Below the pieces are notes generated by a model. The model was not told the origin of the DNA, ran no database searches, and saw nothing but the letters and a program-made list of their open reading frames with translations. Source: a virus. Taken from it: 35,238 bases of DNA. The translations under genes and the position numbers were made by a program. Where the stretch lies: UHGV virus genome UHGV-0365687, one strand, 5' to 3'. Shown in pieces: positions 136 through 35,238 of the stretch (position 1 is its first letter; the number at the start of each line of letters is the position of its first letter).

Positions 136-276
136 TTACTGCTTACACTGTAAGAACGCCGCAAACTCCGCTCCCCAGAAGCTCATCCGTATTTCACACA
201 GCGAACCGTGCAACATCCAGATGATGAGGATTGCCGTCACGCAGAACGTGATGGCCGTAAGCGATTTTTGCGACAT
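136..276 (-). CDS. hok: Hok/Gef-family type I toxin (46 aa small membrane peptide)
   Basis: Manual translation MSQKSLTAITFCVTAILIIWMLHGSLCEIRMSFWGAEFAAFLQCKQ: N-terminal hydrophobic helix then SLCEIR and E-AAFL-C motifs typical of Hok/HokA/Gef; AAGGAG RBS about 8 nt upstream of ATG; below the 60 aa cutoff of the ORF track. Confidence 0.6.
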   Translation of the reverse strand: MSQKSLTAITFCVTAILIIWMLHGSLCEIRMSFWGAEFAAFLQCKQ

Positions 277-7123: not shown

Positions 7124-7612
7124 ATGATGATGATCTACGGCATGTTTGTTTTTGAGCTGCGTACATTGCCGCATCAACAGTTACAGCAAAACAAAAGCTG
7201 GCGGCATGTGAAAAATGAACGCGTTAACCGTTCAGCAAGCTGGCAGTATATCGGTGCAGGTGATGATCGCATCGTTCTTTCTGGTGTGCTTTATCCTGAA
7301 ATTACAGGTGGCGAAGTGTCGCTGTCGCTGCTGACCACGCAGGCGTATACAGGACGACCCTGGCCTTTGATTGATGGTGTCGGGCAGATTTACGGCATGT
7401 ATGTGCTGACTGAAACGAATACGACCCGTTCCGAGTTTGATCGCTACGGTAAGGCGAAAAAGATAGAATTTTCACTGACTCTTGAACGCTGTGATGAGGA
7501 TTTGCGGGAGCGCCTGCAATCCTCATCGTTCAGTGATATGCTGTCCGGCTTCAAAGATAAGGTCACATCATCCCTTAACAGCGCGGCCAGCTCCGTTAAA
7601 GGGCTGTTTTGA
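7124..7612 (+). CDS. U: tail protein U
   Basis: P2 U-like; ATG at 7124 has better RBS spacing (GAGGAG 7110-7115) than ATG 7118. Confidence 0.8.
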   Translation: MMMIYGMFVFELRTLPHQQLQQNKSWRHVKNERVNRSASWQYIGAGDDRIVLSGVLYPEITGGEVSLSLLTTQAYTGRPWPLIDGVGQIYGMYVLTETNTTRSEFDRYGKAKKIEFSLTLERCDEDLRERLQSSSFSDMLSGFKDKVTSSLNSAASSVKGLF

Positions 7613-7622
7613 TTAACGCAAA

Positions 7623-7657
7623 ACCGCTAATGGTCAGATTAGCGGTTATTTTGTTTT
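7623..7657. terminator. intrinsic terminator hairpin (9 bp stem accgctaat/attagcggt) with T-tract, between convergent U and invertase genes
   Basis: Perfect inverted repeat 7623-7631/7638-7646 followed by tattttgtttt; A-run on the other side. Confidence 0.6.
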
Positions 7658-8233
7658 CTGACTCTTCTCTATTGTTCCGCTTGATTCTCCTGCGGGGTGG
7701 TAACGATAAATCGTCGATGTACCAATGCCGTAAATTATTGCCAGTTGTTTTCTGTCGTGACCGTTTTTAATCAGCCTTGCTATTTGCTCATGCTGTTCTT
7801 TTGTCAGCTTCGGGCGACGTCCGCCTGTGCGCCCCCGTGCGCGCGCTGCTGCCAGTCCGGCCAGTGTACGTTCAACGATTAATTCACGTTCCATTTCAGC
7901 CAGGGCACCCATAACGTGGAAGAAAAAACGCCCCATTGGAGAAGATGTATCTATGCTGTCGGTCAGACTGCGAAAATTAATCCCTCGCTCCTGTAGTTCC
8001 CCGACGAGAGAAATCAGATGTTTCATGCTTCGCCCGAGGCGATCCAGTTTCCAGACAACCAGCGTGTCACCTTTTTGAAGGCGCTTTAAAGCGCGTTTTA
8101 ATCCCGGTCAGTCTGTCTTTGTCCCGCTTAATTTATCTTCAAATATTTGTTCACATCCTGCACAAACAAGAGCGTTTCGTTGCAGGTCTGTATTCTGGTC
8201 ATTTGTTGATACCCTTACATAGCCAATCAGCAC
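7646..8233 (-). pseudogene. Gin/Pin/Cin/Hin-family serine DNA invertase, interrupted by in-frame TGA at 8108-8110 (codon 42)
   Basis: Manual translation from GTG 8231-8233: (M)[40 protein letters not shown]-stop-PGLKRALKRLQKGDTLVVWKLDRLGRS then the ORF-track frame MKHLISLVGEL...; continuous invertase homology across the stop. Confidence 0.75.
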
Positions 8234-8287
8234 GCTGAATCTCCCGTCCAAAAGCGTAAATCATGCCATGCAGGTCAGAAACGGCCA

Positions 8288-8315
8288 TTATCTAAAACCT
8301 CGGTTTGCAGGAAAC
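8288..8315. repeat. gix/cix-like recombination site (left boundary of invertible segment)
   Basis: ttatctaaaacctcggtttgcaggaaac; inverted copy of the site at 11232-11259; resembles the gix consensus from memory. Confidence 0.7.
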
Positions 8316-9201
8316 GGTAAACAAGGCTGGTAACGCCGTTCAGCGTTCCGGTGATAAAATGACCGGAGAACTGAAAATTGGCACGGTGAATGCGCTGCGA
8401 ATTTTCAATGATGCCTTCGGTCTTATTTTCCGTCGTTCAGAAGAGCACCTTCATTTCATCCCTACGGCTGAAGGACAAGGCGAAAACGGTGATATCGGCC
8501 CATTAAGGCCATTCGCTATAAATCTGAGAACAGGTGCTATATTTGTCAACCACGGGGCCAAAATTGAAGGAGGTCTAGCTATTGGTGCTACTGATAACGC
8601 ACTGGGTGAAAACTCCATTGTTCTGGGAGATAACGACACCGGATTTAGGCAAGATGGAGATGGTTTTATTAGCATCTTTTCAAATGGTTCGCGCATAGGA
8701 CATATTGATGAGTTAGGATTACATATTTATAAAGATATTGAATCTAATGGCAGCAATTTTAGATTAAAAGGTGATTACCGCCACCACATTACATTCGCCA
8801 ACGAAGACGGAAGTATTCGTATGTTTTTGTGGAAAGATAAAGATGGTGATGGTGTTCATATTAATAATGGTTCAAGCGGTGGCGGTGATTTCGTTTTTAA
8901 AACAGATGGGGGATTTGCGCTGGGAAGTGGTGCGCAAGTTGCGTCTAATGGCGATATTTATGGTTCAGTGTGGGAAAACAACTGGTTAAGCACATGGCTG
9001 CATAATCATGTCGTTCGGGATATTCGTCTTGGCAGCATTGAATATAAAAACGTATGGCGCGACTACGGCTTTGGCGATGCGTCAGGTTATGTTTTAACAG
9101 CCGCAATTAACAGCAATGCGGATGATATTGTCGACACTGTTGCCAGAAGGCCAATTCAGAAATTGATTGGGGGAATATGGTACAACGTGGGGAGTGTTTA
9201 A
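8305..9201 (+). CDS. alternative tail-fibre C-terminal cassette (Sv'-like), promoterless and startless in the current orientation
   Basis: Frame opens at the crossover site ([12 protein letters not shown]...), matching the H constant/variable junction; ends with the PIQ...WYNVGSV motif shared with H. Confidence 0.7.
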
Positions 9202-9202
9202 G

Positions 9203-9730
9203 ATGATGCACCTGAAAAATATTAAGGCCGGGAATCCGAAAACACCGGAACAATACCAGCTAACTAAAAAAGCGGGCGTGGTATGGTTCTTTTGCGAAGA
9301 TGGCAAAAACTGGTATGAGGAACAAAAGAATTTTCAGCCAGACACCATAAAAATTGCTTACGATGAGAACAACATCATCGTTGCTGTCAGTAAAGACGTT
9401 TCAACTATTAATCCTGAAGGGCTAAGCATAGTTGAAGTTCCTGATATTACGGCAAATCGTCGCGCAGACAATAACGGAAAATGGATGTTTCTGGATGGTA
9501 AAGTAGTAAAGAGGGAATATACAGAACAGGAACTGCAACAACAGGCCGAATCACAAAAGGCCGCGTTACTTTCCGAAGCAGAAAGCGTTATTCAGCCACT
9601 GGAACGCGCCGTCAGGCTGAATATGGCGACGGATGATGAACGCGCACGACTGGAGTCATGGGAACGCTACAGTGTTCTGGTCAGCCGTGTGGATACGGCA
9701 AATCCTGAATGGCCACAAAAGCCTGAATAA
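9203..9730 (+). CDS. tail fibre assembly protein (alternative, U'-like)
   Basis: [14 protein letters not shown]...; N-terminal ~90 aa nearly identical to the 9759..10292 product, C-terminus divergent. Confidence 0.75.
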
Positions 9731-9735
9731 AAATT

Positions 9736-9755
9736 AAGGCCCGATATCGGGCCTT
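9736..9755. terminator. palindromic hairpin aaggcccgatatcgggcctt between the two convergent fibre-assembly genes
   Basis: Perfect palindrome read directly. Confidence 0.4.
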
Positions 9756-9758
9756 CTC

Positions 9759-10292
9759 TCATTCTGGTTGTTCGGGAAACGTTACTGGCAGGCAGGAGGT
9801 GTCTGTGGATTCGACTTTCTGCGCATAGAGCATCCACTCGGTTAATTTTTGTTTATTCTCGTCGGAAATGATGCCCATCCGTAGCTGTGAGTCCCATAGC
9901 TGGGTTTTATCCCTGACAAGTTGCAACAGGCTTTGCTTTTCATTCTCTGCCTGCTGCCTCTGTTCCTCCTCGGTATAAGTTCGCTTTATCACTACGCCAT
10001 CTTTGAACATCCATTTACCCGAAATATCAGCCCGGCGATTTGCTGTAATATCAGGTAATTCAACGACGCTTGCGCCTTCTGGATTAATTGCTGAAACATC
10101 CTTTTCAATACAAATAATAACGCCGTTGTGGTCATAGACCATTTTCAACGTATCAGGCTGAAAGTTCTTTTGTTCCTCATACCAGTTTTTCCCATCCTCT
10201 GTATAAAGCCATTTGATGTTAAATTGTTTCGTTAGCTGGTATTGCTCTTTTGTTTTAGGGTTGCCAGCAGTAATATTTTTTAAGTGCATCAT
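9759..10292 (-). CDS. G: tail fibre assembly protein (expressed orientation)
   Basis: 177 aa immediately downstream of H on the same strand. Confidence 0.8.
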   Translation of the reverse strand: MMHLKNITAGNPKTKEQYQLTKQFNIKWLYTEDGKNWYEEQKNFQPDTLKMVYDHNGVIICIEKDVSAINPEGASVVELPDITANRRADISGKWMFKDGVVIKRTYTEEEQRQQAENEKQSLLQLVRDKTQLWDSQLRMGIISDENKQKLTEWMLYAQKVESTDTSCLPVTFPEQPE

Positions 10293-10294
10293 AA

Positions 10295-12391
10295 TTAAAT
10301 ACTCCCCGCGTTATACCACGTTCCATTAATGCAATACTGAATTGGCCTTGCCTGTGTTGTATCAATTAATTCATCACGGTTCCCGTTAACTGACCCCGTA
10401 ACGACATAACCTGACCTGTCAGACCAACCGGGACCATTCCATGTCTGAACAGATGACAGACCGCCAAGGCGAATACCTGTAATAAACCTTGAGTTACATT
10501 CTGCCTGCGTGTATGCACCAACATCTCCCGCAGAGGGTTTGCGGGTCGTGGTGTAAAACTCTGACCAGTCAGCCTCAAATCCATAACCATCACGCGCTGA
10601 ACGATAAAAAATACCGCCGTTCCTGTAATTCACGCGGAACTGTACAGCAGGGCAACTCCCCGCATTCATATTGAAGTGGAGGATTAATGTCGATGCATTG
10701 CTGATATCTGCATCATAAACACCGCTATTCCAGTTCCAGCCAACAGATTTATCATTTGCAACCCTGCTTCCTGTTTGCCCTAAAGCAAATGCAGGCTGCT
10801 GGTTTTTCGTGTTGTAGTCTCGTCGCCAGCCAGGAGCATAAGCATCACCATGATTAATATAAGTGAATTGAGCGTTAGTAATTCCGCCACCGCTGGAAGT
10901 GCTCGGGGTGGTTACACGGATGGTCATGGCACCTTTATTACCCATAACCTCAATAACGCAACCTGCAAGATGAATAGTTCCACAGCCAGTATCGGTAATA
11001 ATTTTATTATTGCCGTATGACCATGAACATTTGCACATCCAGTATGGGTGATTGAATGCCCCTTGAGAATCCAGCCATTCAATCAATTGTGCCGTCGTCC
11101 AGTTCCCTGCACCTGTACTAATAGAACTGTGAAAAGCGCGACATGCACCAATATTTTTTGTGAAGGTATCTTTTCCTGGAATATCTGCGCCGTTCTGGTT
11201 TTTCTGCAATGCGCCTGAAGCCTGATTTATCGTTTCCTGCAAACCGAGGTATTCGATAACGGCGGCAACGGTCGATTTCGCAAGAATATCCCGCCCGACT
11301 TTTGTCAGAGTTGCCAGGCTGGCGACATCATTCCCCGTAAAATACGGAAACCTGTCTGCCGCAGTAGCAAGCCCGGCCAGCGCCGTCAGGGTGGCATCTT
11401 TCGGTTGCTTACCCGCAAGCGCGTTAGTCATGGTGGTCGCAAAATTCGGGTCGTTGCCCAACGCCGCAGCCAGCTCGTTTAGCGTATTCAGTGCGTCAGG
11501 CGACGAGTCCACGAGGGCAGCGATCGCAGCCATAACGAAAGCCGTGCTTGCGATTTGGGTATTATTCGTTCCCTGTCGCGCAGTTGGCGTTGTTGGCGTT
11601 CCGGTCAACGCAGGACTGTTTAAGGGCGCTTTCTTGTTCGTTTCATCCATTACCGCCTTAACCGCTTTCGATGTCGCGGCCAGTGTTTCAGACGTGCTGT
11701 TGGTTGCACTGCTGAGCTGGACTATCCCTTTTCGTGCCGTCGTGGCGTCCTGAGCGGTATATTTTCCGTTAGCCAGGTCATACGCGGCCTTAACCGCTTT
11801 CGGCGTTGCGGCCAGCGTTTCAGAATCGCTGTTAGTGGCGCTACTGAGTTGAACAAAGCCTTTTGCGGTCAGCGAGGCATCCGGGTGACGTCGTGACTGT
11901 TCATGCTCTTTCAGTTTGTCATCCACGTAATCCACTGTGGCCATCACCATGGTGTTATCCACGGTAAGCGCCACGCTGGCAGTGCTGGATACGGTCAGAA
12001 TGGTGCGAAATGTTTGTGCACGTCCGGACCCCTCGGCAACGGTTGGCTTGTAACTTTCGGCAGTATTGCCCACCGCGATTAAATCGCCGTGCTCATCAAA
12101 TACACCAATTTCCCGGATCCAGAATCCGCCCGTTTCAGGAGGAATAACCAGCTCCGCAATAATGCGGTTCTGATGTGTTGCGTCCAGGATGACGCGATTA
12201 ACAGTGTGTCGCCACACCTCATGCACCAGACGGGTCTGCTTACTGTCTGGTGTGGGCAACGTGCCGCCACCGTCGCCCACGGCCATATGAGTCAGGCGGA
12301 CAGGCTTACCATCTGGCGCGGCTGCCTGAGCTAATTTTTTTGCACCCGTATCGGTGATAACGGTTTTAAATTTTCGTGTTGTGGTACTCAT
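10295..12391 (-). CDS. H: tail fibre protein H (constant N-terminal part plus currently joined variable C-terminal cassette)
   Basis: 698 aa; N-terminus and collagen-like repeats resemble P2 H; gix-like site lies inside the gene at the constant/variable junction (LGLQET). Confidence 0.9.
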   Translation of the reverse strand: MSTTTRKFKTVITDTGAKKLAQAAAPDGKPVRLTHMAVGDGGGTLPTPDSKQTRLVHEVWRHTVNRVILDATHQNRIIAELVIPPETGGFWIREIGVFDEHGDLIAVGNTAESYKPTVAEGSGRAQTFRTILTVSSTASVALTVDNTMVMATVDYVDDKLKEHEQSRRHPDASLTAKGFVQLSSATNSDSETLAATPKAVKAAYDLANGKYTAQDATTARKGIVQLSSATNSTSETLAATSKAVKAVMDETNKKAPLNSPALTGTPTTPTARQGTNNTQIASTAFVMAAIAALVDSSPDALNTLNELAAALGNDPNFATTMTNALAGKQPKDATLTALAGLATAADRFPYFTGNDVASLATLTKVGRDILAKSTVAAVIEYLGLQETINQASGALQKNQNGADIPGKDTFTKNIGACRAFHSSISTGAGNWTTAQLIEWLDSQGAFNHPYWMCKCSWSYGNNKIITDTGCGTIHLAGCVIEVMGNKGAMTIRVTTPSTSSGGGITNAQFTYINHGDAYAPGWRRDYNTKNQQPAFALGQTGSRVANDKSVGWNWNSGVYDADISNASTLILHFNMNAGSCPAVQFRVNYRNGGIFYRSARDGYGFEADWSEFYTTTRKPSAGDVGAYTQAECNSRFITGIRLGGLSSVQTWNGPGWSDRSGYVVTGSVNGNRDELIDTTQARPIQYCINGTWYNAGSI
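11232..11259. repeat. gix/cix-like recombination site (right boundary, inside H)
   Basis: gtttcctgcaaaccgaggtattcgataa; 20 bp core identical in inverted orientation to 8297-8316. Confidence 0.7.
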
Positions 12392-23790: not shown

Positions 23791-23931
23791 ACCTTTCACC
23801 CCATCAAATCAGAATCCCTCACGTATTTTTCATGCTCAGCGTGAGAAATACAGCCATTCTGTTGTGTCTCTGCGACATCGTTCAGGGAATGCTATTTACC
23901 CCCTGAAACGCGGGCTGTTCCCCCGTCACCT

Positions 23932-23956
23932 GCGCGCAGAAAAAGCGCGTTTTTTT
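23932..23956 (+). terminator. intrinsic terminator (cgcgc/gcgcg stem, 7 T) ending the P-Q transcript
   Basis: Hairpin plus uninterrupted T7 tract on the plus strand. Confidence 0.55.
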
Positions 23957-24026
23957 GTGCACGCACGGATCCTTGACGGATCCAGCCGCCACGCGGGCCG
24001 GAAGGGCAAAAAGTCGTTCAAAAAAA

Positions 24027-24092: not shown

Positions 24093-24632
24093 TTAGGTGT
24101 TATTTTTATCTGTCGTCAGTGGGCTAAACCATCCACGATTTACATCGCAGGACTGATGCGTTCTGTCCTCGTGTTTCTCCTGCCACAATGCTTTTCCGCC
24201 AGCCTTTATGATGGCTCTTTCAACATCCCGCTCGTATCGCAAGGGCTGAAATACGTCATTAATGAAATATTCGCTTATGTCCGGAAGCGATACAGCAAGA
24301 TTATTTGTTTGTTGCGCCGTCCGGCTATGCGACAAAGCGGCATACTTTAATGCGTCCTGTGCTTTCTGGAATTTAAGTGCATAGTCAGTGGCGATTTTTT
24401 CCAGTTCAGCGATGCGCTTTTTTGCTGTTTCCAGTTCATCCAGCAGTGCCAGCATGTCTTCCGGTCCAGCCAGAATTCTGAAGGTGTTGATCGCGTCAAT
24501 ATCCACACCGTAATCTTTAAGTTCCTGTTCGCTTAACAAATCATCATCAACTGGCAATATTAACAGGCGTTCCATTGCCGGAATTGCACGTTCTGCTGCC
24601 ATTTGTAGTGCCTGATAGTCAATTTTGCTCAC
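24093..24632 (-). CDS. Ead/Ea22-like protein (paralogue 2)
   Basis: MSKIDYQAL... N-terminus and KRIAELE coiled-coil as in Ead/Ea22-family prophage proteins; 4 nt overlap with upstream paralogue. Confidence 0.6.
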   Translation of the reverse strand: MSKIDYQALQMAAERAIPAMERLLILPVDDDLLSEQELKDYGVDIDAINTFRILAGPEDMLALLDELETAKKRIAELEKIATDYALKFQKAQDALKYAALSHSRTAQQTNNLAVSLPDISEYFINDVFQPLRYERDVERAIIKAGGKALWQEKHEDRTHQSCDVNRGWFSPLTTDKNNT

Positions 24633-25228
24633 TGGCTGCCTCCTTTGCGAAGCTCTGCGGCGAAATATACAGCTGCGGAAACAATAGCTGCATGTCGGTA
24701 TTCATCATCAGAAAATAAAGAATCTCCCTTAAGTGCATTGACGATACTCTGATGATTTTTTGCCAGCATCTCCACGCCCTGCGCCCGTACTTCAGCCAGA
24801 AAAGCGTCGGTGGCTGGGGTTTGTGGCATTCCTCCGTCTGTTGCGCAGATATACGCGTCAGATATTTCATCCTGCTCTCCATCAAATACATAGCAACTGC
24901 CCCTGATAAACAGCTTCATTGCGGCATTCTCCGCTGCCAGCTCCGTGAAATTAGCCTCCAGCTCTGCAATGCGTTTGCTTTGGGCTTCTCGTTCATCCAA
25001 CAGAGCCTGCACTACTTCAGGGTTGAAAGCTGCGATATAACGAGCGTTGTTCTCTGCGTTTTTCTGTTCGTCGAATCCAGGCCAGTCGACAATATCTCCG
25101 TGATGATTATCTCCTGGTGTGTGCACGGCGTACGTGCCGTATTTGCCCGGCGAAATAAATGCGACCCATTCGCCCTGTGTTGCCTGTTTTGCTAACTCAC
25201 GCAGTGCCTGATAGTTGATTTCGCTCAT
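24629..25228 (-). CDS. Ead/Ea22-like protein (paralogue 1)
   Basis: MSEINYQALRELAKQATQGEW... typical Ead/Ea22 N-terminal region. Confidence 0.65.
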   Translation of the reverse strand: MSEINYQALRELAKQATQGEWVAFISPGKYGTYAVHTPGDNHHGDIVDWPGFDEQKNAENNARYIAAFNPEVVQALLDEREAQSKRIAELEANFTELAAENAAMKLFIRGSCYVFDGEQDEISDAYICATDGGMPQTPATDAFLAEVRAQGVEMLAKNHQSIVNALKGDSLFSDDEYRHAAIVSAAVYFAAELRKGGSQ

Positions 25229-25291: not shown

Positions 25292-25603
25292 TTATTCAGG
25301 AAATAACGCCCTGATATTTCTGGCCATCTGACTGGTTATCTGTGCGGTTGGTACTGGCTGTGACAGGGGGCGTTCTGTCCTGGTTTGTGTCACTGATAAC
25401 GCCTCATCATCAGCCCATGCAGCCAGTCGGTAAGCCTCTGCCGGATTCATTTTCAGAAGTGCCAGCCCGGCCAGAAAAGCCACGCGTTGGCCGCTTTTGC
25501 GGGCTTCTGGTGTAAGGCTGTCCAGCCAGGCGCATGCTTCGCCTTCGTTCTTGACGGCGGCGGGCTTCAGATAGAAACTTATCCGTCTGGTTGGTGTCGT
25601 CAT
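25292..25603 (-). CDS. parR: ParR/StbB-like small DNA-binding protein
   Basis: 103 aa directly downstream of the ParM-like gene; start MTTPT with AAGGAG RBS; ISFYLKP...LAGLALL resembles ParR N-terminal region. Confidence 0.5.
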   Translation of the reverse strand: MTTPTRRISFYLKPAAVKNEGEACAWLDSLTPEARKSGQRVAFLAGLALLKMNPAEAYRLAAWADDEALSVTQTRTERPLSQPVPTAQITSQMARNIRALFPE

Positions 25604-25607
25604 TGGT

Positions 25608-26567
25608 TTACTCCTTGTCCATTGCGTACAGCCCATTAACCAGAGCAAACTGTGGCACCCCGTCCGCGATGAAAGTCGCATTAACTCCGCAGGCTTCGCG
25701 GATAGCGGGTGCCACAATCTCCGCCCCGCCACCGACAACCATCACCCGCCCGTAACCCGAAAAACCCGCCAGCGCGCGGATCACGCGTTGTTTCAGTGTT
25801 TCTTCCTTTTCACGAATAACCGCCATCAGGCTGGCGTAATGCGCGTCATTGTGGATGTGCTGGCGCAGCCAGGCTTCATCATGGCGATGTTCGATAATGG
25901 TATTGGCGATGTGGTGACTGGTGCGCATACCGTTAGTGGCCATCACCGACAGTACGGCATCGGCCATCAGAGAAACGCCTACGTGTGGATCGCAAAACAC
26001 CTGGCTGATACCTGCCAGTTGCCCCTGAACCTTTGCCACATCCAGCGTGGTTCCGCCCAAATCCACAATCAGCAGGGATTCAAACGGACTCATGTCAGCC
26101 AGTGCCTTAAAGCCAGCCGGAATGGATTCAGGCATAACCCGCACGTTACGGATAGTGAATGCTTCGCCGTTCTGGTACTCCACCGGGCGCATAACGTTCG
26201 CTTTTTTGCGGTTGATGTTGGCCATGTCCGGCTGTGCGTTTGTGTCGAAATACTCGCTCAGTGGCAGGGTGACAACCACATCCACTTCCTGTGGTGTGAT
26301 GCCTGATTTGACCAGCGCGTGATGAATGGCAATTACATTCACATCGCTGTACTGGTATTGCGTGTCGGTCGTCTGGACAAAGCGATCGCTGACCGGATCA
26401 AAACCATAGCGCACGCCATCAAGCATGTAGTTCGCGGGCTGCGTGCCACCGAACGGCGCAGACCATTCCGACTTGAAGCTGTTCGGGCTGATGGCGTTGC
26501 GGCGTTCGCCGTTCTCAGTCCATGCCAGCTTGATGTTGGTGGAGCCGTCGTCGATACAAATTTTCAT
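25608..26567 (-). CDS. parM: ParM/StbA-family actin-like ATPase
   Basis: MKICIDDGSTNIKLAW...ISPNSFK...YSDVNVIAIHHAL...IVDLGGTTLD: strong resemblance to plasmid R1 ParM including the phosphate-binding motifs. Confidence 0.8.
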   Translation of the reverse strand: MKICIDDGSTNIKLAWTENGERRNAISPNSFKSEWSAPFGGTQPANYMLDGVRYGFDPVSDRFVQTTDTQYQYSDVNVIAIHHALVKSGITPQEVDVVVTLPLSEYFDTNAQPDMANINRKKANVMRPVEYQNGEAFTIRNVRVMPESIPAGFKALADMSPFESLLIVDLGGTTLDVAKVQGQLAGISQVFCDPHVGVSLMADAVLSVMATNGMRTSHHIANTIIEHRHDEAWLRQHIHNDAHYASLMAVIREKEETLKQRVIRALAGFSGYGRVMVVGGGAEIVAPAIREACGVNATFIADGVPQFALVNGLYAMDKE

Positions 26568-33784: not shown

Positions 33785-33879
33785 GTGATAATCTCCCTGT
33801 TTGGGGTATTTCTTGCGACGGATGCCCCAAATCAAACTCATTTGTATAAACATTAATACAGACGTTGGAGAATTGCAAC
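33785..33879. promoter_or_regulatory. lysis-lysogeny switch region with divergent promoters; inverted repeat tttgggg-N18-ccccaaa (33800-33831)
   Basis: Position between cox and C; palindrome and tataaa-like element read directly. Confidence 0.45.
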
Positions 33880-34182
33880 ATGCGTATGACTATTGGAGAG
33901 CGCATAAAAATCATGCGTGAAAGCGAGAGACTTACCAGCCTCCCGGATACAGCAAAAATGCTTGGTTTAAACCGTGATGCTCTGTGGAGATATGAAAGCG
34001 GTAAAACTATCCCTAATGCTGAAGTAATTGAGCAAATACTAAACAACCCCAGATTTGAGAAATATGCGTTGTGGTTTATGACTGGGAAAATTGCGCCTGA
34101 ATCCGGGCAGATAGCTCCGGCTCTCGCACACTATGGGCAAGAGCCAACGGACTTACCCCCATCCGAAAGGAAAATTGGCTAA
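33880..34182 (+). CDS. C: immunity repressor C
   Basis: Start MRMTIGERIKIMRESE with GGAG RBS; FMTGKIAPESGQIAPALAHYGQ resembles the P2 C C-terminal region. Confidence 0.8.
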   Translation: MRMTIGERIKIMRESERLTSLPDTAKMLGLNRDALWRYESGKTIPNAEVIEQILNNPRFEKYALWFMTGKIAPESGQIAPALAHYGQEPTDLPPSERKIG

Positions 34183-34248
34183 CCCTTTATTATTCTTACG
34201 TTTTACAAACTGGAAATGTCTTTCCTCGTTTCACCGGAGGGCTTGCCA

Positions 34249-35238
34249 ATGGCAATTAAAGCGCTCGATGGTGGACGGTATAAAGTGGATGTTAGACCGC
34301 GTGGCCGAAGTGGACGTCGGATTCAGCGGATTTTTAAGAAAAAGGCAGATGCAGTGGCCTTTGAGCGTTATGTTCTCAGCCACATGCACGATAAGGAATG
34401 GCTTGAAAAGCCAACAGAGCAACGTCATCTCTCAGATCTGCTTCCGTTATGGTGGGAATTGGGTGGACGCAATAAGCCATATGCTAACGGCGTTCTAACC
34501 AGGTTGAAAAAAATCATCAAAGAAATGAATGATCCAAGGGTTAGCCAGATTAATGCTCGTTTCATGGCCGCTTATCGAAGCTCCCGTTTATCCTTGGGAG
34601 TAAAAGAGTCTACTGTTCGGCGTGATGAGTCGGATCTCGGAGGAATGTTTACACTCCTGGCAAATGCCGGGGAATTTCACGGAGAAAATCCGCTCCGCGC
34701 CCTCCCCTCTTTGAAACGAAAATCACCCGAAATGACGTATCTCACCACGGAAGAAATCGCCAAATTACTGGATGCAGTAAGCGGTGATGCCCGGCGGATT
34801 ACGCTACTTTGTCTCAGTACTGGGGCGAGATGGGGAGAAGCGAAAAATCTGCGCGCGGAACACATCATCAATAATCGCGTGACGTTTAACAAAACTAAAA
34901 ACGGAAAAGTTCGAATTATTCCTGTCTCTGATGAAGTTGTTAGTGAGATCAAAACAAAGAAATCCGGCCTTTTGTTTGACGTCAATTATGAGGAATATCG
35001 CAAGGTGCTTCGCAGTGTTAAGCCAGACCTACCAAAAGGACAGGCTGTACATGTTCTACGCCATACCTTTGCTGCTCACTTTATGATTAATGGAGGAAAT
35101 ATACTTACGCTCCAGCGAATTATGGGGCACGCTACGATCCAGCAAACTATGACCTATGCGCACCTCGCTCCTGATTTCCTCCAGGATGCAATTTCACTTA
35201 ATCCGTTAAAAGGAGGCATCCACATTTCATCCACATAA
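34249..35238 (+). CDS. int: tyrosine integrase (P2 Int-like)
   Basis: Start MAIKALDGGRYKVDVRPRGR with GGAGG RBS; C-terminal HxLRHTFA...Y catalytic region; stop at window end. Confidence 0.88.
   Translation: MAIKALDGGRYKVDVRPRGRSGRRIQRIFKKKADAVAFERYVLSHMHDKEWLEKPTEQRHLSDLLPLWWELGGRNKPYANGVLTRLKKIIKEMNDPRVSQINARFMAAYRSSRLSLGVKESTVRRDESDLGGMFTLLANAGEFHGENPLRALPSLKRKSPEMTYLTTEEIAKLLDAVSGDARRITLLCLSTGARWGEAKNLRAEHIINNRVTFNKTKNGKVRIIPVSDEVVSEIKTKKSGLLFDVNYEEYRKVLRSVKPDLPKGQAVHVLRHTFAAHFMINGGNILTLQRIMGHATIQQTMTYAHLAPDFLQDAISLNPLKGGIHISST

Follow-up and report, generated by a model that had tools for sequence, protein, structure and literature searches.

The closest described system to the tail-fibre switch analysed here is the G segment of phage Mu, where inversion by Gin switches the C-terminus of the tail fibre together with its chaperone. 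Its genes are arranged as Sc-Sv-U / U'-Sv' / invertase, the crossover sites (gix) are inverted 26-bp sequences with a GA/TC centre, and the sis enhancer, which involves the host protein Fis, lies in the 5' part of the invertase gene. In Gin-type switches, this enhancer typically consists of two Fis sites approximately 48 bp apart, and the loss of the cognate invertase is a classical route to locked switches, such as the G(-)-locked derivatives of Mu. Trans-complementation has long been known for this family. Mu gin mutants are complemented by Pin of e14 (van de Putte, Plasterk and Kuijpers 1984, cited in PMC12529663); PinE, responsible for this function of e14, inverts both the Mu G segment and the Salmonella H segment; Fin of Fels-2 inverts H; and PinQ inverts the P segment of e14, which is locked in pinE pinQ mutants (PMC12529663).

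The prophage described here adds a natural case to this list, rather than a new kind of system. The stretch of DNA analysed (35,238 nucleotides, hereafter the window) is a complete P88-like prophage of E. coli (Xuanwuvirus, Peduoviridae, P2-like), whose fibre switch shares with that of Mu the gene order, the type of crossover site with its central dinucleotide, the Fis-site-like 15-mers in the 5' part of its invertase gene, and the exchange of both the fibre C-terminus and its chaperone. Contrary to the transposable Mu, this element is a P2-like prophage, its cassettes are unrelated to those of Mu in detail, and its invertase has a nonsense codon at Arg42. Most likely, it also resembles the Mu gin/Pin, Fin/Hin and PinQ/e14 cases in that a fibre segment with a defective invertase is inverted by a relative encoded elsewhere in the genome. 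However, the donor is known in those cross-acting cases, which involve laboratory mutants or defined strains, whereas here the donor is putative, and the nonsense allele is natural and has spread through a wild lineage. The switch differs as well from those locked by the loss of their invertase, in that locking is absent at the level of the lineage.

Within its own phage type, the prophage is syntenic with P88 and with the prophage of E. coli T28R, both of which differ from it in having CGA (Arg) at codon 42. It is integrated between raiA-bamD (a flank 99.7% identical to E. coli) and pheL-pheA. The DNA identity in the invertase region is 98.5% with P88 and 99.9% with the T28R prophage, the latter being approximately 98.4% identical to the window prophage outside this region. 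Every recognisable structural, late, lysis and replication protein of P88 maps full-length to the window with no internal stop, which led to the rejection of general prophage decay, and the invertase gene is the only recognisable broken gene of the prophage. In the deposited P88 genome, the expressed cassette is the one that the window keeps silent; P88 also differs in its second variable fibre part, its integrase and its immunity region.

The fibre switch and its interrupted invertase gene

The invertible segment of the window spans approximately 2.95 kb (8301..11246), and public genomes of the lineage contain it in either orientation. It is delimited by a gixL-like 26-bp crossover site, TTATCTAAAACC-TC-GGTTTGCAGGAA (8288..8313, centre 8300-8301), and a gixR-like 26-bp site, TTCCTGCAAACC-GA-GGTATTCGATAA (11234..11259, centre 11246-11247), the last one lying within the fibre gene. 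Both sites, which are enclosed by inverted repeats (8284-8328 and 11219-11263), have an identical central dinucleotide and share a 20-nt identical inverted core. The tail fibre expressed in the window, S (698 aa; 10295..12391, minus strand), is composed of a constant part (12391..11247) and a variable part (11246..10295), and is followed by the likewise expressed gene for its assembly protein or chaperone, U (177 aa; 9759..10292, minus strand). On the opposite strand are the intact alternative fibre C-terminus Sv' (8305..9201, plus strand) and the assembly gene U' (175 aa, Caudo_TAP; 9203..9730, plus strand), both silent in this orientation. A simulated inversion about the site centres fuses Sv' in frame to the constant part, giving a 681-aa fibre, S', accompanied by U'. 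The locus thus has paired inverted sites, one of them inside the fibre gene, two intact sets of fibre and chaperone, and representatives in both orientations, as is characteristic of Gin-type fibre switches (Mu G / P1 C / e14 P type).

A putative recombinational enhancer (8149..8212, minus strand), proposed by analogy with Hin and consisting of two 15-mers that resemble the Fis consensus, lies within the 5' part of the invertase gene. These occupy nucleotides 22-36 and 71-85 of the gene, with their centres 49 bp apart (as judged by motif match only), and lie approximately 95 and 144 bp from the gixL centre; in Hin, the enhancer is found approximately 100 bp from hix (PMC3798978). We considered and discarded the possibility that the mutation falls inside the enhancer, since the Fis-like pair ends at nucleotide 85 of the gene and the mutation is at nucleotide 124. 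Judging from these elements, the DNA substrate of the reaction, that is, the gix sites, the Fis-site-like pair and both cassettes, appears intact.

The invertase gene itself (7646..8233, minus strand) starts with a GTG at 8233, preceded by GGGAG 7 nt upstream, and comprises 195 codons including one internal TGA. This premature stop (8108..8110, minus strand) is codon 42, which is CGA (Arg) in relatives, and its next base is C, giving a UGA-C context. In the conceptual translation of 8233..7646, it is the one in-frame stop (8110-8108; local sequence GTKTD*PGLKRALK), and is followed by 153 further uninterrupted invertase codons up to the natural stop at 7648-7646, an extent of in-frame homology that is far beyond chance. 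Read with Arg at the stop, the protein matches the Pfam families Resolvase (PF00239, 1.3e-50) and HTH_7 (PF02796, 1.3e-13), is 85% identical to Mu Gin overall, with only 3 differences within the first 120 residues, and finds its best matches among solved structures in Gin 4M6F and 3UJ3 (approximately 1e-100). The active-site residues Tyr5, Arg7, Ser9, Asp33, Arg65 and Arg68 (Gin numbering) are all encoded, Arg42 alone being replaced by the stop. The residues that set enhancer-dependent invertases apart are encoded too: the contacts with Fis and the enhancer described in Hin, namely the basic residues 47, 48 and 51, and Gln151, Arg154 and Leu155 (PMC3798978), correspond here to K46, R47, K50, Q150, R153 and L154 (Hin numbering minus 1). 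Comparison of window positions 7600-8350 with E. coli T28R gives a single difference in 751 nt, the C-to-T change at 8110 that turns CGA into TGA; P88 also has Arg at codon 42, and in both T28R and P88 the invertase is annotated as an intact 588-nt CDS. Taken together, these features define the gene as a pseudogenised Fis/enhancer-dependent DNA invertase of the Gin/Hin/Cin/Pin subfamily, with the architecture of the subfamily preserved but the open frame and Arg42 lost.

An earlier note made from the sequence of the window had described this gene as a Gin/Pin-type invertase, with a TGA presumably derived from CGA upstream of most of the catalytic domain and with gix-like sites and fibre cassettes intact. 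All of this holds: the coordinates of gene and stop are exact, the Pfam and Gin matches agree with the assignment, T28R differs by just that base, codon 42 precedes most of the catalytic domain, and the identical site centres and the in-frame S' obtained by simulated inversion bear out the integrity of sites and cassettes.

Regarding the products of the interrupted gene, the residual N-terminal ORF (41 codons; 8111..8233, minus strand) retains Tyr5, Arg7, the catalytic Ser9 and Asp33, and lacks the rest of the fold, including Arg65, Arg68, helix E and the HTH; judging from the sequence, the resulting peptide can neither fold nor catalyse. Arg42 itself aligns with Arg43 of Hin, whose mutations inactivate the enzyme (PMC3798978), and with Arg45 of resolvase, where R45A and R45K abolish resolution in vivo and lower the cleavage rate to 0.3-2% (PMC2794168). 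Barring read-through of the UGA-C, the invertase gene is dead in cis. The next in-frame start, the ATG of Met70 at 8026, opens a downstream ORF of 126 aa (7646..8026, minus strand) which spans the last part of the catalytic domain together with helix E and the HTH, and which has been called as a gene in public assemblies; no convincing Shine-Dalgarno sequence was found before this ATG. Programmed recoding of the UGA, either by selenocysteine insertion or by read-through, was also considered, and was rejected on account of the lack of a SECIS-like or other stable hairpin or recoding signal 3' of the UGA (fold z = -0.55), the CGA codon of the relatives, and the absence of an 80-nt sequence with the TGA from 511 places in complete genomes.

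Distribution of the TGA allele

The stop was at first suspected to be private to the window, given that exact searches came back empty. A 36-mer containing the TGA had 0 matches in IMG/VR, the GTDB species representatives and the JGI metagenomes, and the above-mentioned 80-nt TGA query, run against all complete E. coli genomes, had 0 of 511 matching places at 100% identity. A look-up with the 41-aa N-terminal peptide yielded nothing but genes truncated at the ends of contigs from unrelated genomes. This suspicion was overturned by exact-protein look-ups in a larger contig collection, using the 126-aa downstream ORF and the 698-aa fibre, which located the identical 588-nt gene with the TGA in ERZ27267900, ERR1622305, SRR24000634, SRR29999970, SRR25638858, GCA_022970685.1, GCA_050939295.1 and GCA_050938415.1, together with two further carriers, GCA_902848835.1 and GCA_036602815.1, making a total of 10 public datasets. 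These come from different projects and assemblers, and may not all be independent, although at least five prophage genotypes can be distinguished among them. The codon at 8108-8110, which had been singled out for confirmation, with CGA as the finding that would speak against a stop, is therefore TGA in ten public datasets.

Over lengths of 2-22 kb, the carrier contigs match the window with 99.96-100% identity, and the variants found among them are all private. The nearest relatives with CGA, by comparison, are 31-48 substitutions away from the window in the invertible segment alone, and a CGA counterpart of this exact prophage was not encountered. The TGA is, then, a genuine allele, inherited within one E. 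coli prophage lineage.

Inversion of the segment after the mutation

The orientation of the segment in the TGA carriers was determined with exact 62-nt probes for the four possible junctions. The ten datasets were divided into five with the orientation of the window, four with the flipped one, and one without an orientation call. The first group comprises loci L006, L013 and L017, where both junctions were recovered, and L009 and L011, identified by their gixL junction. In two of the flipped datasets, both recombinant junctions and the TGA are on one contig: L018 (GCA_902848835.1), which follows the in-silico flipped window collinearly for 16,915 nt with 3 mismatches, and L025 (GCA_036602815.1), which does so for 22,046 nt with 1 mismatch. 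In the other two, the flipped junctions and the TGA are on different contigs of the same dataset (L019 with L007 in ERR1622305, and L026 with L012 in GCA_022970685.1). At the protein level, the predicted 681-aa S' has an exact match in public E. coli assemblies, as does the 304-aa silent remnant of the current S, and both fusion proteins (the 698-aa S and S') are present in public assemblies; silent remnants of 247 and 315 aa, used as markers of the flipped state, had no match in the protein collection. Junction probes proved non-discriminating against complete E. coli genomes, where both matched the same approximately 168 genomes. The crossover maps within the 20-nt identical core that holds the gix centre.

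Any point mutation starts out on a single molecule, which has a single orientation. Since the identical TGA is found in both, at least one inversion must have taken place after the mutation. The earlier note had concluded that the switch appeared frozen in its current orientation; this is not supported by the five carriers as they are in the window and the four flipped ones, and the caveat that it had added, of another invertase acting in trans, becomes the favoured reading. However, because all the variants of the lineage are private, one flip and many cannot be told apart: a single flip after the mutation would explain the orientation data, and ongoing flipping is not proven. Most carrier contigs run straight through the gix sites, and each isolate looks largely homogeneous in orientation, implying slow inversion. 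In three assemblies of the lineage, contigs end at the gix boundaries or close to them (L012 at 8316, L021 at 11229, and L020, which contains the segment only, 8318-11213), which hints at, but does not establish, mixed orientations in the reads.

The explanation that we consider probable is that the invertase is dead in cis and that a different Gin-family invertase of the host inverts the segment in trans. A single C-to-T transition (CGA, Arg42, to TGA) has removed the prophage's own invertase, the mutant prophage is inherited within one E. coli lineage with its gix sites and cassettes kept, and recombination at the gix core after the mutation has produced the two orientations seen in the lineage. 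According to this model, a Gin/Pin-family invertase encoded elsewhere in the host, presumably together with host Fis, would act on the orphaned gix sites. Possible donors are widespread, as 3,758 of 5,426 complete E. coli genomes (69%) have at least one invertase homologue, with up to 8 places per genome. No second invertase was found within the window or in the host flanks at either prophage end. Among the carriers, the Logan contigs of ERR1622305 and SRR29999970 break at the same positions, 8226 and 8153 (loci L007, L010 and L019), breaks not seen in SRR24000634 or SRR25638858. By the logic of a k=31 de Bruijn graph, these breaks would fit a 131-nt exact repeat (gene nucleotides -21 to 110) that a second invertase gene would have in common with this one. 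A contig end inside an exact repeat is also observed in L022, where the 200-nt repeat is common to two invertase loci.

The most serious competitor of inversion in trans is a leaky stop, where occasional read-through of UGA-C would provide a little full-length invertase and the segment would flip in cis at a reduced rate. We regard it as unlikely, even though the base after the UGA is indeed a C, both orientations are seen with the TGA, and the gene downstream of the stop is fully conserved, with 0 further differences from T28R across 751 nt. UGA_C is described as a weaker terminator, mostly from eukaryotic data (PMC9841425). The notion of UGA-C as a poor terminator in E. coli is said to rest on work by Poole, Brown and Tate in 1995. 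On the other hand, read-through of UGA in this bacterium inserts mainly Trp, which would mostly replace the conserved Arg42. The equivalent Arg mutants of Hin and resolvase are inactive or crippled (PMC3798978, PMC2794168), so that a low frequency of read-through multiplied by a crippled enzyme would result in a very low rate of inversion. Moreover, the sequence after the stop shows no SECIS-like hairpin or recoding signal (z = -0.55), and a young allele would explain the downstream conservation equally well. The conservation of Arg42, along with the inactivation of Hin by its mutation, is what makes read-through weaker than inversion in trans. A broader proposal, to which we give slightly less credit still, is that the UGA-C would be more than a dead end: read-through might act as an attenuated phase-variation clock, or the prophage might have come to depend on the invertases of co-resident prophages, possibly modulated by the 126-aa product. 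If such a dependence were true, the host range of the prophage would be set by the prophage community of its host.

Somewhat more doubtful than either of these is that the switch is frozen for site-specific inversion, and that the flipped genomes derive from invertase-independent recombination, namely a rare homologous or illegitimate exchange between the inverted repeats, or from independent recurrence or transfer of the C-to-T change. It is true that the data strictly require one flip only, and that an exchange within the 20-nt identical inverted core, which the two sites share along with longer imperfect repeats, would be indistinguishable from site-specific recombination. However, efficient RecA recombination needs a minimum of roughly 25 nt, more than the core offers; the longer U/U' repeats are just 70-80% identical and the observed junctions are elsewhere; and a rare event would be improbable in 4 of 9 sampled datasets. 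Recurrence of the mutation is at odds with the distance to the nearest CGA relatives, 31-48 nt in the segment, and with the fact that no CGA twin has been seen. As an addition to any of these mechanisms, translation of the 126-aa ORF could yield a protein that binds gix as a catalytically dead competitor or regulator of trans-acting invertases. The ORF is intact and contains the HTH_7 domain with Q150, R153 and L154, but there is no convincing ribosome-binding site before the ATG at 8026, the product is putative, and the observed flips show that inversion is not blocked, all of which makes such a role very improbable. Finally, a sequencing or assembly error in an intact invertase, suggested by the single-base nature of the change and by the empty exact searches, is excluded in practice because ten datasets from various projects and assemblers agree on this base, and the site is moreover outside the GATC and CCWGG methylation motifs that give systematic miscalls.

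Taken by itself, the invertase gene is a routine pseudogene in a well-understood switch. Its interest lies in the TGA, which serves as a built-in time marker, providing a clean natural example of a host-range segment that was mobile after losing its own recombinase. Since the segment is mobile with a broken invertase, it is unsafe to annotate a switch as locked from the broken gene alone. The lineage would also constitute a tractable test bed for the cross-talk between prophage invertases in wild E. coli, a subject in which the work on PinQ, e14 and anti-phage activity has revived interest (PMC12529663).

Variable regions and insertions around the switch

Apart from the invertase gene, the sole interrupted P88 feature is a 47-codon hypothetical ORF with an internal stop (window 23822-23962, minus strand), which is probably no real gene. 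The late genes are 97-100% identical to those of P88, whereas the integrase (approximately 50%) and the C-type repressor (approximately 42%) diverge, and the region that contains them (33865-35238) is a mosaic immunity and integration module. Over 1,000 blocks of the contig collection contain the same integrase, which adjoins pheL in 8 of 8 among the matches listed. The prophage also encodes ParM/ParR-like segregation proteins (25295-26567, minus strand; 100% and 96% identical to those of P88) and, near its left end, a hok/gef-family toxin (139-276, minus strand), which represent plasmid-style maintenance functions in an integrated P2-like prophage.

Two Ead/Ea22-like ORFs of 179 and 199 aa (24093-25228, minus strand) lie in the window between the portal and the parM/parR-like genes, a place occupied in T28R by a 399-aa hypothetical protein and a TOPRIM-domain protein (L003, 31111-32831). 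This region looks like a variable cargo hotspot, possibly with an anti-phage defence function in T28R. Another difference between both prophages is a DUF3800 gene located between ogr and gene D in T28R (L003, 6484-7653) and absent from the window (approximately 767-770). Gene D is apparently split in the T28R annotation and, in the window, full-length with respect to P88 gpD.

Closer to the switch, an inverted repeat, AACCGCTAATCTGACCATTAGCGGTT, followed by TTT (7613-7645), separates the convergent gpU and invertase genes, and looks like a bidirectional intrinsic terminator shared by both. In the TGA prophages of SRR24000634 and SRR25638858, IS10-type termini interrupt the silent U' at window positions 9274-9282, and the junctions carry a duplication of TACCACGCC (3' end of L016, and 5' ends of L009 and L011); the window has no IS at this place. 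In SRR24000634, the inside end of the IS is on one side and the outside end on the other, and SRR25638858 has the IS at the same site in the opposite orientation. The outside-end sequence occurs in a paper on Tn10 transposition (PMC2705183).

The last observation concerns an unrelated E. coli contig, the above-mentioned L022 (GCA_005391305.1, BFYM01000088.1; 6589-10123), where a gene for a 199-aa invertase next to gpU is followed by fibre-chaperone cassettes. At the end of this contig lies the start of a second invertase gene in the opposite orientation, the two copies being identical from approximately -77 to +123, and the locus could be a more complex arrangement, with multiple invertases or multiple segments.
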